Both the position numbers and the translations under genes were made by a program. A stretch of DNA of 64,000 bases, taken from the IMG/VR virus record IMGVR_UViG_3300031993_000004, positions 96,001 to 160,000 of that record; one strand, written 5' to 3'. Origin of the DNA: a virus. Its lineage: Duplodnaviria; Caudoviricetes. Of this stretch, positions 21,262-46,632 are shown piece by piece; positions within the stretch are counted from its first letter, which is position 1, and every line of letters begins with the position of its first letter. Below the pieces are notes generated by a model, which was not told the origin of the DNA, ran no database searches, and saw nothing but the letters and a program-made list of their open reading frames with translations.

Positions 21262-21283
21262 AAATCCAAAGGAGGAAACACAT

Positions 21284-21985
21284 ATGTCCATCTTCAACGT
21301 TAACCCCGATCCCGATTGGCCGGTACTGACCGGACCCGGCTTTGTCCAGGCGACGTATCAGCCGTACAATCAGCCGATGGGTGCTCCGTCTTACTATTAC
21401 AATGGTATGACGGTGGTTCCCACAACTCCGCAGGTCGGTATGCAGCCGGATTCTCGCAGATATGATACACAGCCTCCTGCGTATCAGCAGACTGCGATGT
21501 TCCAGCAGCCTGTTGCACAGCAGCCGCAGACATTCGGCTTCAATCAGCTTGCAGAGAGCAGACGGACTCAGACCACAGCTCCTACAGCAGTGAATCCGTG
21601 GGCAGTCCAGCCGGTACAGCAGGCACAGGCTGTGATGCAGCCTGTATTCCAGCAGCCGGTATATCAGCAGTTCGTTCCGCAGACACAGGTGACGACTGTT
21701 TCGTATCCGGTCACGTTCAGTGCAGGTGGTCCGTATGCAGCGCTGAGCGCATGCCATCCGATGATCAATAAGAAAAATGCATGGGGTGAGCAGCAGGTGT
21801 ACAATCCGACTCCGGCTCCGGTGATCAACTGGGCAAACGTCGGTGTTCAGACCGCGCCGCAGCAGTGCACCTATGCACTTCAGCCGATGGCACAGCAGCC
21901 GCAGATGACATATCCGCAGCCGGTATTCCAGCAGCCGGTGCAGCAGAGCTGGGAGGAGTTGGCAAAACAGAACTTCTGCAAGTGA
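21284..21985 (+). CDS. Q/P-rich low-complexity (prion-like) protein
   Basis: Start MSIFNV after AAAGGAGG. Repeated FQQPV units, periodically spaced Trp motifs, and APQQCTY. Confidence 0.8.
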   Translation: MSIFNVNPDPDWPVLTGPGFVQATYQPYNQPMGAPSYYYNGMTVVPTTPQVGMQPDSRRYDTQPPAYQQTAMFQQPVAQQPQTFGFNQLAESRRTQTTAPTAVNPWAVQPVQQAQAVMQPVFQQPVYQQFVPQTQVTTVSYPVTFSAGGPYAALSACHPMINKKNAWGEQQVYNPTPAPVINWANVGVQTAPQQCTYALQPMAQQPQMTYPQPVFQQPVQQSWEELAKQNFCK

Positions 21986-33541: not shown

Positions 33542-34666
33542 ATGTCATTCAATCTGATAATCGGTATGGGCAATACCGGTTCCCAAATCGTGAGAGCTGC
33601 AGCAGAATCCGAGATCCTGACTGATTGCAAGCTGTACACGATTGATTCCGTGACCTCCAATGTCGACATGAAGACCGTCAATACGATCGAATCGATTTCT
33701 TTGATCTCTGACGACAAGGCTGGTAGCGGACGGTCCCGTGAACGTGGTGCTGCGATGTTCGAATTCCACGATAATAATGGGACATTCGACGAACTGTATG
33801 CTGAAGCACAGAAGGCGAAGACTCCGATCATCGTAATCACCTCTTCGGCTGGTGGTACTGGATCTGGTACAACACCCCCGCTGTGCAGAAAGCTCATCGC
33901 AGCTGGCATTCAGGTGATTCCGATCATTGTGTGTCCTGCGATGGAAGATCCGGTTGCATTCCATATGAATACAAATGATCTCTTGTTGGAGCTGCAGAAA
34001 GCTGAGATCTCCACATACTGTGTATTCCGGAATGAATACGGAAAAGCAGATTACCGTGACATCAACAAAGAGGTTGTCTCTGCAATCGAGATTATCCTCG
34101 GAAAGCGGTATGATGCAACTGACAAGGATTCCATCGATGATTCTGATCTTGACGTGATTCTTTCAACACCAGGACGTTTCATGGCAGTCGAGGCTTCCGC
34201 ACAAACCCCGAGCGACCTGAAACGCCGAATCACAGAACGCGTCCTCAATGGACACCAGCCTTGCTGGAATATGACAGATGCTGAGTCAGGAACGCTAATG
34301 ACTGCGTTTGCTCTGTCTTCTCCTTTTGCTGCAGGTGACTTCGAAGAAGTGTTCTCTGAGTTGAATGCTCGTATCAAGAACAGATTCGATGAATATCGGA
34401 ATATCTGCAATAAAGATGGTATGTGCAAAGCATCCATCATCGTTGCAGGGCTTCCGCCTGTTGAATTGAAACAGATCGACGGTGAATTCCAGATGGCCGC
34501 GGGCATTGCGGATGGTGTCAAGAGTACAGCAAAGCGTCCTGCATTCATGCAGAAGAAAGGTACTCTGCGTTCAGCCAATTTCCCGAAACCATTCCAGCCG
34601 GTTAATACCGTTGCTCCGGATGAGAAGAAATCTGGAGATGTTCTGGATAACTTCAACATGACCTAA
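33542..34666 (+). CDS. phuZ: Tubulin/FtsZ-family GTPase (PhuZ-like)
   Basis: IIGMGNTGSQI (T1), GSGRSRERG, signature SAGGTGSG, and IDDSD (T7 loop). Confidence 0.88.
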   Translation: MSFNLIIGMGNTGSQIVRAAAESEILTDCKLYTIDSVTSNVDMKTVNTIESISLISDDKAGSGRSRERGAAMFEFHDNNGTFDELYAEAQKAKTPIIVITSSAGGTGSGTTPPLCRKLIAAGIQVIPIIVCPAMEDPVAFHMNTNDLLLELQKAEISTYCVFRNEYGKADYRDINKEVVSAIEIILGKRYDATDKDSIDDSDLDVILSTPGRFMAVEASAQTPSDLKRRITERVLNGHQPCWNMTDAESGTLMTAFALSSPFAAGDFEEVFSELNARIKNRFDEYRNICNKDGMCKASIIVAGLPPVELKQIDGEFQMAAGIADGVKSTAKRPAFMQKKGTLRSANFPKPFQPVNTVAPDEKKSGDVLDNFNMT

Positions 34667-34753
34667 AATATTTTTGTGTCGCAGATATGTACATAATTCC
34701 TGCGATATCTGTCACACAAGGATATCTAAAAATCCAAAGGAGGAAACACACTT

Positions 34754-35656
34754 ATGATCGCTTACTCGCAAATGTACCCCGGCGACATCTCATTCCTGGA
34801 GTCTCTCGAATCATATTTGAGAAAACTCAACGTGTCTGCAGCGTCTCCGCAGGAAAGACTCGCCATCACTGAACAGGCAAGAGGAAGCTTGTATTCCTAT
34901 CAGGTTCAGTCCATCGACAGAGTCTCCAACAAGATTCTCGAATCGGACATGGAAGTTGATCAGGAAGCTCGTGCCCTCTGGATTGCGTTCAGCCATCATG
35001 TAATGGATCCGGCATTCGTGAACATCATGATGCAGTATCTCGGAACCAGACAGGATCCGACGCTGAACGGCCAGGTCGGCGCTCTCCTTTCCAAGGTGAT
35101 GAATGAGTACATGGAATCTCACTGGAAGCGGGATGAGAAGAAAAAGAAGGACGAGGAAGAAGCCCTTCCGGAATTCGAAGAGATCAAGCACATCCAGATC
35201 GCTATCGAAGATCTTCTCGGACCGACAGCAAATTCCATTCAGGTTCGCTGCGGAAACCTGACACATCCGGAAGCACTGTTTATCGCCGCATGCATTGCAA
35301 TGAACTCTCAGAAGACACTGAAGGAAATCCTGTCCTCCGGTCTTCCGATCACTGCAGATGTATTCGACAACCTGCTGAATCCGGATCCGATCATTCGTGG
35401 TGCTCTGACTCTGCTGAAGTCTGATGTGCCTACGAAACCAAACGCAAACCAAACTGCGTTCCTCGAATCTTTGAAGCGTTGGATCTATACCAAGCTCGAC
35501 AAGATTCCGGGCGGCTCCAGTGTTTGCTATCAGTATCTTGTCGGCGTATACGGAAGCGTCTCTCCTGATGTGTCTCCGTATTATATCCAGATCAAGGACT
35601 GCGGTACCCTGTATACAACTCTGCTTACTGTCGCAAAGCAGATTGTGAATAAATAA
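34754..35656 (+). CDS. Hypothetical protein
   Basis: 300 aa; its leader shares an identical 24-nt block with that of 21284. Confidence 0.8.
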   Translation: MIAYSQMYPGDISFLESLESYLRKLNVSAASPQERLAITEQARGSLYSYQVQSIDRVSNKILESDMEVDQEARALWIAFSHHVMDPAFVNIMMQYLGTRQDPTLNGQVGALLSKVMNEYMESHWKRDEKKKKDEEEALPEFEEIKHIQIAIEDLLGPTANSIQVRCGNLTHPEALFIAACIAMNSQKTLKEILSSGLPITADVFDNLLNPDPIIRGALTLLKSDVPTKPNANQTAFLESLKRWIYTKLDKIPGGSSVCYQYLVGVYGSVSPDVSPYYIQIKDCGTLYTTLLTVAKQIVNK

Positions 35657-42878: not shown

Positions 42879-44324
42879 ATGAAGATCGAGAAAACGACAA
42901 CGGGTCTGATCATCAAAGACCCGACAACTGAAGTCAAGAAAAAATGTTTGCAATACTTCACACTTCAGAAGCCACTTCGTGAATTCTTCATTTACAGCGG
43001 TAATGACCCAGATACAAAACCAACTCTGGGTCATGAACACGATGTGATTTATATCACTTCCGGTTTCCTGAAGATCAACGATCCTGCAATCATGTCATTG
43101 CGAGTGGATTCAACCAAATCGTATCTGACACCGAAACAGATTACACTTGAGATGAATCGCGAACCTCGTTCCAAGTTGCAAGAAGATTGCATCAAACTGG
43201 CGACAACATCGACCTCTCCAAAGGTCACGATGGAACTCAAGCCCGGAACAGGAAAGACGTTTATTGCGCTTTATTCTGCATCAAAGCTTGGGTTGAAGCC
43301 TTTGATTGTTGCACCTACATCATTGCTGAAAAATCAATGGATTGATAATATCCTTGAACTTGGCATTGATCGTAATGACATTGCGACGAAGATATGGGAT
43401 TCTCCACATAAGAAAGTGTGTGTTGTCACGATTTCTTCATTGGAAGGTGCTGTCCGCGATGATTGGAATGGCCTCATGAAGACAATGGATTCTGCAGGAT
43501 TCGGAATCAAAGTTATCGACGAAGCACATCTTCATTTGAAAGGAATGCTGAAGTTTGATGCATTGTGCAATATCAAGCACAATTGGTATCTGTCTGCGAC
43601 GCTCGGACGTTCTGATCCTTCTGAAGACAGAATCCTGAATCGTGCGCTTGCTGATGCAACCAGATTTATCGGCAACTCTGCATATGAGGAATACCAGAAA
43701 GAATATGTCCAGGTTTATCTTCAGGACATCTTCTACTTCCCGTCTTCAAAACTCTGTGAGAAATGCTTCAAGTATGGATCAAAGGGTTTGATTCGTTCCT
43801 CATACTATCGCATGCTGATGTCATATCGTAATGGTGAACCTTTTATTCGGAACATCGTGAATGTCATTAAACGTGCAAAAGGAATCATCAACTATGACGG
43901 AAAGATCTTGGTGCTTGTTCCATTGCTCGATATCATTGATCGTGTTCTCCAAGCAATGAAAGCTGATCCGTTCTTCAGGAATTACACGATTGCCGGTGTT
44001 GATGGTTCTATGCCATTGGCAAAACGTCGTGAAGCAATGGAATCCAACTTCATTCTTTCAACATCCTTGTCGATGGGTACTGGTGTTGACGTTCAGAATC
44101 TTGGTGTTGTTGTGAACTTCGACCAATATTCTTCGTCAATTATTGGCGAGCAGATCTTCGGACGTTTGAGAGACCGCGGTAAAGAGACGTACTATGTCGA
44201 CGTCTGTGATCATGTCAAGCAGGCTTCCATGTTAAGACGATGGGGTGAGAAGCGTCGTCTGCTGATTCCATATTATCCTGGCGCAAAACGGGATATGAAA
44301 AAATTTCCGAACATCTTCTGTTGA
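42879..44324 (+). CDS. Superfamily 2 DNA helicase (UvsW-like)
   Basis: PGTGKT, IDEAH, LSATL, GTGVD, QIFGRLR. Confidence 0.9.
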   Translation: MKIEKTTTGLIIKDPTTEVKKKCLQYFTLQKPLREFFIYSGNDPDTKPTLGHEHDVIYITSGFLKINDPAIMSLRVDSTKSYLTPKQITLEMNREPRSKLQEDCIKLATTSTSPKVTMELKPGTGKTFIALYSASKLGLKPLIVAPTSLLKNQWIDNILELGIDRNDIATKIWDSPHKKVCVVTISSLEGAVRDDWNGLMKTMDSAGFGIKVIDEAHLHLKGMLKFDALCNIKHNWYLSATLGRSDPSEDRILNRALADATRFIGNSAYEEYQKEYVQVYLQDIFYFPSSKLCEKCFKYGSKGLIRSSYYRMLMSYRNGEPFIRNIVNVIKRAKGIINYDGKILVLVPLLDIIDRVLQAMKADPFFRNYTIAGVDGSMPLAKRREAMESNFILSTSLSMGTGVDVQNLGVVVNFDQYSSSIIGEQIFGRLRDRGKETYYVDVCDHVKQASMLRRWGEKRRLLIPYYPGAKRDMKKFPNIFC

Positions 44325-44334
44325 ACGGAATAAT

Positions 44335-44512
44335 AATCCGGAATGCTCCCTTCTCCTCACACAGGGATTGGCCTCCCTGTTTCGCCGAAGCGGGTCGGCG
44401 ACTACGATGTGTTTTCCTCCTTGAGAACATGCTTACACCATTCGAAAAGCATTCCGGATTTTGATATTTATCGTGCGGGGCGAAAGCCCCGCACTAAAAT
44501 ATCATTTCTTTT
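44335..44512 (+). ncRNA. Candidate structured small RNA with anti-SD loop
   Basis: 13-bp closing stem (44335-47 with 44448-60) encloses three hairpins. AACG-N6-TA promoter motif places +1 at 44335. Terminator hairpin at 44473-44494 with a T-tract. Confidence 0.6.
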
Positions 44513-46632
44513 TAGAATTGCTGTGAGGAGTAATATGCCATGTCAGATGTATCAATCGATACAAGTGGCATATCACCGCCATAGTCAGTACGTCTGTAAC
44601 CATACTCGTCATAACCATCACGACCAAAACCATTTCTGTTCGTTTGGTCAAGATTCTCACGCAACAACTGCATTTCGAATCCTTCTTTATCGCGATATGG
44701 AATAATGTTGTTAATCTGTTCTTCAGACAATTCCTGTTCGTATTGTTCAACTTGTTGACGACCAGTTTTGAAAGTGCACCGCTCTTTGTATATACCAAAC
44801 CGCTCCAATTTGTAACCGAAGTAGAAGATATAGAGGATATGGTTGTATGCCATGACCAGGTCATCATGGCATCCTGCAGCCGCTTCGATTTTTCCATTCT
44901 TACCACGAACAAGATTCATGATATCGAATGAGAGATATTTGGTTGTCATCAACTCTCTATAGTCATGCACGTGAGACTTCAACAACACAAACATCTTTTC
45001 ACGAATTGCAGTTGTCAGATACGTACCGATATAACCCTTCTCGACAGCTTGACGTTTAACTGTCATCTCATCGGTCTCACCACGTGTAATCGCATTCTTA
45101 GAAGCGTCAAGTTTCGGATCATGATAGAACCGGTGTTCAAGATGTGACTTCTGTACGAAATCAACGATTGTAACACCAAGGGAGTTCGTCTCAATGATGA
45201 AGATACAAGACGGAATCAGTTTTGCAATTTCAATGATGACAGACATCGTATCAAACGGTCCCAAGAAGTTACAAACCAATTCACCAACAACTTGGAATGT
45301 ATACGGGTGAACGACAATCACGGCCGTGTTGTCTCCGTTCTTACCAGATGCAGGGTCGATACCGACAAGATACGGTAACCGCGTGTCATAATACGGTGTA
45401 TCGGATGTCAAACTCTTGTTGACAATTGGATGATCATAAACATAGAAATTGAATACATTCATAATCTTCACAACATGATCAGGTTCACGTGTATGTTGAG
45501 AAATGTAATCAATATCTGCTTGTTCGAACAGAACGCCCTCTTCACCACGATACCGTTGCAACAAAACACCACGACGATACTCGTTGATGGTACCTTTCTT
45601 AACGGCTTCGTAGTATTGCTCTCTCAACCAAGCTTCATCTTTGCGAAGTTGCTTGTAATTGAACTCGATGTAGAACATCGAAATCGGAACACGATCTTGG
45701 TCTTCTTCGTCCGGACCTGGAACGAGTTGCATCCGAGCAATTTCTTCATCCGTCTTGTCATAGATATGCTCATCAAACACAGGAAGATTATCAATGATCT
45801 TTTGGAAGTTGATACCATCCTGCGTTTCCAAGTTACCAGGTGTTGATGCATACATAATACAAGAACGGATACCCATCTGTCTTGCTGTAATGCGAGCTTG
45901 AACGATTGTCGGGTTCGCACCATCAATGAATGCTTTCATGTATGGCACGAATTCACATTCATCGAAGAAGCCTGCAAACAGAGAAAGACCACGAGACTTG
46001 TCTTCTGCAACAGTTTCAGAACGTGCGGCGGATACAGTTGCAATAGAACAGTTGTGTTTTTCATATTTGAGAGACTGCAAACCTGGAAGATGTTTCATCT
46101 TGGCCCAAGGATTCATATATTCCGGCAAAGCTGTGATATAATCGCGCAGAATACCAACGTTGTCCATGCAACGTTTCTCAGTTCTGTGCATATATGGAAT
46201 ATCAATGTTCTGATATTCAAACAACATCATGTATGAGACAATCGATGTCAATACCGTTGTCTTATAGGTCTGACGAGGTTGCACAAGTTCAAAGTCGAAA
46301 CTGTGAATGAACGACCATATCGCAGCACATCCAGCTCTATGTAAATACAAAGGAACTTTACCTGCACCACGAATCGGAATTCGTACAACTTCTCTGAAAT
46401 AGAACCATGGATTCTTTTTACATTCACCAATGATTCTGCCAATGTTCTCTGCCGTTATATTTGGATCGTATGGGTCGATGTCTTGTACGCCTAAGTCGGG
46501 ACGTTTTACTTCCAACATGAAGTACCATTTCTTGATACCCAATGTTTTCAGTTCTTGTGCGGTCAGTAGAAATGATTGGTTTTTTGTTCCAAAATCATAA
46601 TACTTATTCCCAATTCGTCGAACATCAGACAT
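44512..46632 (-). CDS. terL: Terminase large subunit
   Basis: NPWFYFREVVRIP, Walker A PRQTYKT, FFDECEF, ASTPG, nuclease VGIDPA and HDDLVMA. Confidence 0.92.
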   Translation of the reverse strand: MSDVRRIGNKYYDFGTKNQSFLLTAQELKTLGIKKWYFMLEVKRPDLGVQDIDPYDPNITAENIGRIIGECKKNPWFYFREVVRIPIRGAGKVPLYLHRAGCAAIWSFIHSFDFELVQPRQTYKTTVLTSIVSYMMLFEYQNIDIPYMHRTEKRCMDNVGILRDYITALPEYMNPWAKMKHLPGLQSLKYEKHNCSIATVSAARSETVAEDKSRGLSLFAGFFDECEFVPYMKAFIDGANPTIVQARITARQMGIRSCIMYASTPGNLETQDGINFQKIIDNLPVFDEHIYDKTDEEIARMQLVPGPDEEDQDRVPISMFYIEFNYKQLRKDEAWLREQYYEAVKKGTINEYRRGVLLQRYRGEEGVLFEQADIDYISQHTREPDHVVKIMNVFNFYVYDHPIVNKSLTSDTPYYDTRLPYLVGIDPASGKNGDNTAVIVVHPYTFQVVGELVCNFLGPFDTMSVIIEIAKLIPSCIFIIETNSLGVTIVDFVQKSHLEHRFYHDPKLDASKNAITRGETDEMTVKRQAVEKGYIGTYLTTAIREKMFVLLKSHVHDYRELMTTKYLSFDIMNLVRGKNGKIEAAAGCHDDLVMAYNHILYIFYFGYKLERFGIYKERCTFKTGRQQVEQYEQELSEEQINNIIPYRDKEGFEMQLLRENLDQTNRNGFGRDGYDEYGYRRTDYGGDMPLVSIDTSDMAYYSSQQF

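Follow-up and report, generated by a model that had tools for sequence, protein, structure and literature searches.

A conserved small RNA gene of phiKZ/AR9-type jumbo phages with a predicted anti-Shine–Dalgarno hairpin that co-varies with one phage leader

Between the genes for a DNA helicase and the large terminase subunit of an uncultured phage lies a short intergenic stretch that can fold into a nested set of hairpins, one of which presents a C-rich loop of anti-Shine–Dalgarno (anti-SD) character. Does this locus encode an RNA of its own and, if so, which message might it meet? The original prediction, drawn from the window alone (the whole 64,000-nt stretch of DNA analysed), was a late-expressed phage small RNA that shuts off early, middle or host translation by pairing with SD sites. 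The phage record holding the window is 277.6 kb long. An RNA polymerase beta subunit, PhuZ and GroEL are also encoded near the locus, and these genes, together with the identity of the terminase (Table 1), place the phage in the phiKZ/AR9 type. Blastn revealed no DNA similarity to annotated phage records. Strong AAGGAGG boxes suggest a host among the Bacillota; one relative was binned under Paludibacteraceae, a label that mis-binning may explain. The names of the records hint at samples from the ruminant gut. Eleven tRNA genes form two clusters ahead of the window (genome 83305-95074).

Table 1. Coordinates of the RNA element, its neighbours and its predicted targets (window positions)
Feature	Position	Strand	Remarks
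SF2 DNA helicase	42879..44324	+	Upstream neighbour of the RNA; Pfam and PHROG
AR9-type late promoter AACR-N6-TA	44324..44335	+	Last A is the predicted +1
RNA body	44335..44460 (126 nt)	+	Closed by P1, 44335-47 with 44448-60 (13-bp helix)
J1/2 pyrimidine-rich linker	44348..44360	+	C/U-rich in most homologues
P2 hairpin	44361..44380	+	Predicted in homologues with differing stem sequences; loop often ends in CC
P3 hairpin, GCGRG at loop	44382..44401	+	Motif-anchored 6-10 bp stem in 16/16, divergent sequences
P4 hairpin	44408..44431	+	CUCCUU anti-SD loop 44417-22; 5' arm is the predicted target-specific seed
J4/1 single-stranded box ACACCAUUC	44435..44444	+	Kept in 13/16 aligned homologues
3' region	44462..44513	+	GC hairpin 44473-94 with GAAA loop, enclosed by an outer stem; T-tract follows
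Terminase large subunit (terL)	44512..46632	-	~26% identical to terminases of phiKZ-like phages
Tubulin PhuZ	33542-34666		Assigned by PHROG
Main predicted target	34713..34756	+	Late-type promoter 34713-24, 30-nt leader, SD 34737, start codon 34754
34754 gene	34754..35656	+	300-aa all-helical protein directly 3' of PhuZ; pLDDT 90
Possible second target, leader of 21284 (233 aa)	21269..21286	+	Third among 111 orthologue groups

The fold proposed from this one sequence, RNA body and following hairpin, recurs in 18 related contigs from about 12 lineages of AR9/phiKZ-like jumbo phages (duplicate records set aside), with compensatory changes in P1. The relatives were collected by helicase searches and pattern scans and gave an alignment of 16 distinct sequences, that of the window included. 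Homologues are 126-201 nt long and have in common the AR9-type late promoter at +1, the closing helix and the loops GCGRG and CUCC. In P1, 98.9% of cells are paired, and four columns are changed on both sides (17 such cells); this covariation was reached by 0 of 500 shuffles, a test inflated by the relatedness of the sequences, and slid controls gave 20-54%. The C-rich loop of P4 is enclosed by a 5-9 bp stem of very different sequence in all 16 aligned sequences, and in all of them CUCC, a motif different from UCCC, is predicted to be unpaired within it. A GC hairpin follows P1 in every homologue inspected.

A scan for the complete unit (promoter, closing helix, C-rich motif and following hairpin; positive controls included) found a single copy in each of four nearly complete genomes and nothing in G006, a complete, more distant relative that retains the 34754 orthologue and its SD despite the absence of the RNA. 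The exact P1 pattern matched nothing in viral contigs, and the lone match to a relaxed version, in L039, was judged a chance hit. A pattern scan of metagenomes contributed at least two new variants, the matches listed being mostly chance. The covariance model R1 drew a blank in distant phages, which weighs little: most of these are fragments, the model captures only 20 pairs, and even L007 and L020 score weakly. Rfam gave no gathering-score match in the window or in six related loci, and none on the element at E-values up to 10; a tRNA search of the element with ARAGORN was also negative. No open reading frame is conserved within the RNA on either strand (plus-strand frames of 1-120 aa, minus-strand frames absent or 3-92 aa, with unrelated sequences). 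No published description of the RNA was found; the supplementary tables of a survey of 10,000 viral RNA candidates (PMC10690425) fell outside the search, and may hold it as an unnamed listing. Taken together, the comparative data make it very probable that the locus is a real, free-standing, single-copy non-coding RNA gene of about 175 nt with its 3' hairpin.

All four helices P1-P4, including the three G-U pairs of P4, lie where they had been placed at the outset, and RNAfold returns the same fold. The body with the terminator hairpin has a z-score of -8.0 and the body alone one of -4.7; without the P1 arms the value is only about -1.7, and the inner helices thus rest on comparative evidence. 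Two details of the proposed anatomy need amending. P4 had been said to expose CCUCCUU; the leading C of that heptamer forms the closing pair, which leaves CUCCUU open. The GC hairpin said to close the unit with a T-tract is present, with the T-tract 10 nt beyond it, after the outer stem; a scan of the 3' region for canonical terminator patterns found nothing. The 3' end is probably near 44510, to judge from the sequence, and the 3' hairpin region is perhaps shared with terL. Freeing the P4 pentamer is estimated to cost ~2.9 kcal/mol. The P2 loop can pair over 3-7 bp with the P3 loop region, a figure with no null comparison behind it, and the J4/1 box might bind protein or host RNA.

The late promoters of AR9 have the form AACA-N6-TA/G, with transcription starting at the last base (PMC5312081). 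A variant of this unit, NACR-N6-TA, ends on the first P1 base in all homologues (one base upstream of P1 in L161) with a spacer of varying sequence; the AACG-N6-TA motif proposed to set +1 at 44335 was confirmed, and the predicted start site coincides with the beginning of the closing helix. Across this genome AACR-N6-TA occurs 147 times at spacing 6, versus 219-293 times at other spacings, and it is four-fold enriched between genes (Fisher p=5e-9). The depletion specific to spacing 6 was found in five genomes, the intergenic enrichment in this one. A working promoter is the likely reading, because the motif is rare at spacing 6 overall yet enriched between genes, as expected, and its conservation at the RNA start is in keeping with the late expression originally proposed. 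Because the fold of the minus strand is just as good (z=-7.5), folding cannot decide the strand, and folding-energy strand tests were uninformative. Counts of G-U versus A-C pairs (16 vs 7, p=0.09) favour the plus strand weakly; the main evidence for that strand is the promoter motif fixed at the first base of P1.

The leaders of 34754 and 21284 had been named as targets from this window before any relative was examined, and the relatives therefore serve as an outside test. The complementarity of the P4 arm and loop to both leaders is present as described, and so are the other leader matches listed at the outset. In the co-variation test, the 27-nt P4 seed of each of 14 genomes was paired with the 34754 leader of every genome. 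Cognate duplexes had a mean energy of -24.5 kcal/mol versus -20.8 for non-cognate ones (permutation p=5e-5 in the initial version); the advantage persisted with corrected inputs (p about 1e-4), with the leader taken only to the AUG (p=3e-5) and in four subsets without close kin (p=0.0006-0.013). Cognate partners were favoured in 69 of 91 genome pairs and not in 19. Among 42 orthologous leader groups only 34754 stands out, the next best giving p=0.03. The P2, J1/2, J4/1 and P4 3'-arm segments showed no co-variation with the same leader (p=0.44-0.95; J1/2 p=0.95), and the P3-loop segment gave p=0.005 with weak energies. Within genomes, the 34754 leader ranked 3/249 here and 2/229, 6/209, 1/230, 1/54 and 1/31 in five relatives, and the combined ranking placed it first among 111 orthologue groups, by a score that any strong, conserved SD would raise as well. 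Rank and co-variation with the P4 arm, both computational, thus point to 34754 as a specific target, pairing being predicted in trans at the SD region.

The predicted duplexes extend from the SD towards the start codon and use up to 4 G-U pairs, with perfect runs of 15 nt in L005, 14 nt in L003 and 13 nt in L161. After the cost of opening both RNAs, net energies range from -9.6 to -18.4 in 10 of the 14 genomes, and the value for this window is -7.6. Perfect matching to 34754 extends over no more than 10 nt in this genome, a length equalled by 8 other leaders and exceeded by 3, and this RNA pairs with the leader of L003 as well as, or better than, with its own. Duplexes end close to the SD in L176 and L177 and, less markedly, in L182. 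Comparison of sister pairs gave a clear cognate advantage in three (L162/L164, L006/L161, and L160 with L013 or L175) and a mixed or near-zero one in three. In L237, L238 and L239, where the RNA was not found, the SD-start spacer of 34754 is nearly all A/T, and RNA-bearing relatives mostly have several C there (the cases are few, and GC content differs).

Could 34754 be one among many messages, phage or host, damped by a general anti-SD RNA? The loop fits any GGAGG box, present in 93 leaders of this genome, and C-rich small RNAs of Gram-positive bacteria have many targets (PMC2790875). Genomes also differ throughout in the style of their leaders, which goes partly with the seed (Fisher p=0.025, with L020 as an exception), and a whole class of leaders may therefore be affected. 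Against this, 34754 is the sole co-varying group of the 42, and its leader pairs at ~-25 where the mean GGAGG leader reaches ~-17. A role in early or middle gene shut-off, in particular, sits badly with a target that itself carries a conserved late-type promoter, and early motifs occur within 200 nt of none of the 25 GGAGGAA leaders, so this part of the original prediction was not supported; host shut-off is conjectural. We regard a general anti-SD RNA as unlikely, while ranking it first among the alternatives.

Support for other individual targets is uneven. The 21284 leader ranks well across groups (Table 1), and its co-variation is borderline (p=0.058, five genomes). A 671-aa gene lies slightly beyond the window, at window coordinate 64597 (genome 160597-162612); its leader ranks second across genomes and gives p=0.033, also from five genomes. 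Five-genome groups cannot yield a p below 0.008, and both cases are underpowered for that reason; the 64597 gene is a candidate further target. Co-variation was not significant for two other leaders named at the outset, 35675 (p=0.09) and 17210 (p=0.11), and 14706, also named, ranks only in the top 6-47%. When J1/2, J4/1 and P3 were tried as seeds against phage mRNAs, no convincing or conserved target emerged.

The 34754 gene itself appears to be a non-early gene with a short leader, since an AC-anchored N6-TA motif lies 27-31 nt before the start in 15/15 orthologues. Repeated boxes (one TAATT, two GATAT) overlap its promoter at ~34694-34727 and are conserved in all 15 orthologues, forming a possible operator or autoregulation site. 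Homologues of the protein fall into 55 clusters at 50% identity and were absent from annotated phages. Searches of PHROG, Pfam, PDB sequences, Foldseek, VIA, BFVD and Atlas matched no family or fold, the best structural comparison (Z ~6) being ordinary for helical bundles. A weak Pfam match to DnaB_2 (DnaD-like) was seen in 10 of 63 homologues (best 1.9e-5; P0181 and P0182, residues 69-131); fold searches gave it no backing.

These data suggest a model in which the RNA probably, by analogy, represses translation, with 34754 as its main target. The RNA would be transcribed from the phage late-type promoter, the same phage polymerase making it and the 34754 mRNA, and P1 would protect its ends and hold the three hairpins. 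The C-rich P4 loop would nucleate on the GGAGG SD box of phage mRNAs, and from there pairing would extend down the 5' arm of P4, whose weakly bound 3' partner would be displaced, and cross the spacer as far as the start codon; opening P4 is predicted to cost ~5-10 kcal/mol in genomes that pair well. The extension beyond the SD would be the source of specificity. The conserved main target would be the mRNA of the gene that follows PhuZ, with 21284 and a few other GGAGGAA leaders as possible secondary ones, and the outcome would be a block of 30S binding that damps a non-early phage protein. Gene anatomy, conservation, P1 covariation, promoter statistics and RNA-leader co-variation are direct results of the comparison; timing, transcription, binding and repression we infer, the last three from the analogy with RsaE, RoxS, RNAIII and C4.

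As in RsaE and RNAIII of S. aureus and RoxS of B. subtilis (PMC2790875, PMC5419742), an unpaired C-rich motif is predicted to meet the SD, neighbouring bases would confer specificity, and no need for Hfq is assumed. Unlike these RNAs, with which it shares no sequence or Rfam homology, the jumbo-phage RNA carries CCUCC rather than UCCC, is encoded by a phage behind a phage-polymerase promoter, has its ends locked by a 13-bp helix, and has a gene of the phage itself as predicted target. It would thus work like a C-rich anti-SD small RNA, to judge from its sequence, and belongs to no such family. The C4 antisense RNA of phages P1 and P7 (RF01695; reviewed in PMC12197685) is likewise encoded away from its target, with loops that pair close to where ribosomes bind a phage message. 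C4 controls antirepressor synthesis in temperate phages, its target being the ant mRNA; the jumbo-phage RNA shows one seed, and the protein encoded by 34754 matches no known family or fold. The RF01695 covariance model found nothing in 5 genomes at E up to 1. Small RNA candidates have also been reported in phiKZ and 201phi2-1, jumbo phages with multi-subunit RNA polymerases (PMC11512511); their conserved small RNA, for which no target is known, differs in being derived from a 5' UTR that precedes a tail gene.

The anti-SD mechanism does not account for the conservation of P2, P3 and J4/1. The RNA may instead be a structured one that serves mainly to bind a protein or part of the ribosome, or in packaging, with SD pairing secondary. 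The P3 loop and the J4/1 box are conserved and no mRNA target was found for them, contact between the P2 and P3 loops is possible, and terL adjoins the RNA in this genome. Packaging had been offered as an alternative from the outset on account of a self-complementary GGCC loop, and phi29-type packaging RNA does have self-complementary or interlocking loops for multimers; the palindrome is not conserved here and inserted genes part the RNA from terL in most relatives, which weakens the packaging reading. No Rfam family matches, and the co-variation with one leader would be left unexplained. A primarily structural RNA is accordingly also improbable, standing just behind the general anti-SD RNA. 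A combination of functions, with the P4 arm as a changing guide that tracks one leader and the P3 loop, P2 contact and J4/1 as a scaffold for a phage protein in RNA-guided translation control, is speculative and slightly less probable still.

Pairing with 34754 may be real with another outcome, such as a stabilised message or timed release. RoxS offers a precedent: by way of a C-rich region it can stabilise a target and activate it (PMC5419742). Yet the duplex covers the SD through to the start codon, the usual geometry of repression, and the 34754 leader is short and open (opening costs 3-7 kcal/mol in most), so that an effect other than repression seems very unlikely.

Finally, the locus might make no RNA of its own and be only a 3' UTR or terminator structure in the helicase mRNA, or else an element that acts at the DNA level. 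Here the promoter overlaps the helicase stop and no terminator intervenes, which makes read-through from the helicase likely. In six relatives, however, the RNA lies apart from the helicase, behind a hairpin terminator in L006, L013, L175, L176 and L177 and at a distance of 1.3 kb in L007, with the promoter always kept. This argues that the RNA is a gene of its own, and we find the 3' UTR reading more doubtful than a different outcome of pairing. Least probable is a minus-strand decoy or small ORF using the mirrored SD, the other alternative raised at the outset: folding is equally good on the minus strand, where an SD is displayed and, in 9/16 homologues, followed by a start codon, but that strand holds no ORF here and elsewhere frames of 3-92 aa without shared sequence, the promoter is fixed at the plus-strand start of P1, and cognate duplexes use G-U pairs.

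The surroundings of the gene are themselves variable. Structured stretches lie between the helicase stop and the RNA (L013:7119-7345, L175:11450-11680, L176:12524-12730, L177:11444-11780, L006:6444-6600, L014:3618-3772); except for L013 and L175 (93% alike) they are mutually unrelated, three of them open with the late promoter motif, and this intergenic region resembles a hot spot of small RNA genes. Extra genes sit between the hairpin of the RNA and terL in many relatives (L003:6600-7520, L005:6600-7800, L161, L162, L175), several of them behind an AT-rich early-type promoter, and terL is flipped in L161. The helicase genes of L012, L013, L020, L162, L176 and L184 are interrupted by an insert, often with a LAGLIDADG domain, that is probably an intein.

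Among the phage small RNAs considered here from a review (PMC12197685), most belong to prophages or temperate phages, and the small RNAs of phiKZ-like jumbo phages have had no known target (PMC11512511). For the RNA studied here, comparison alone yields a seed, a target and natural compensatory pairs, which puts repression of 34754 within reach of a simple reporter assay that does not need the uncultured phage. If the model is correct, jumbo phages with their own polymerases would also tune non-early genes post-transcriptionally, and a conserved protein encoded beside PhuZ would be singled out as needing control.
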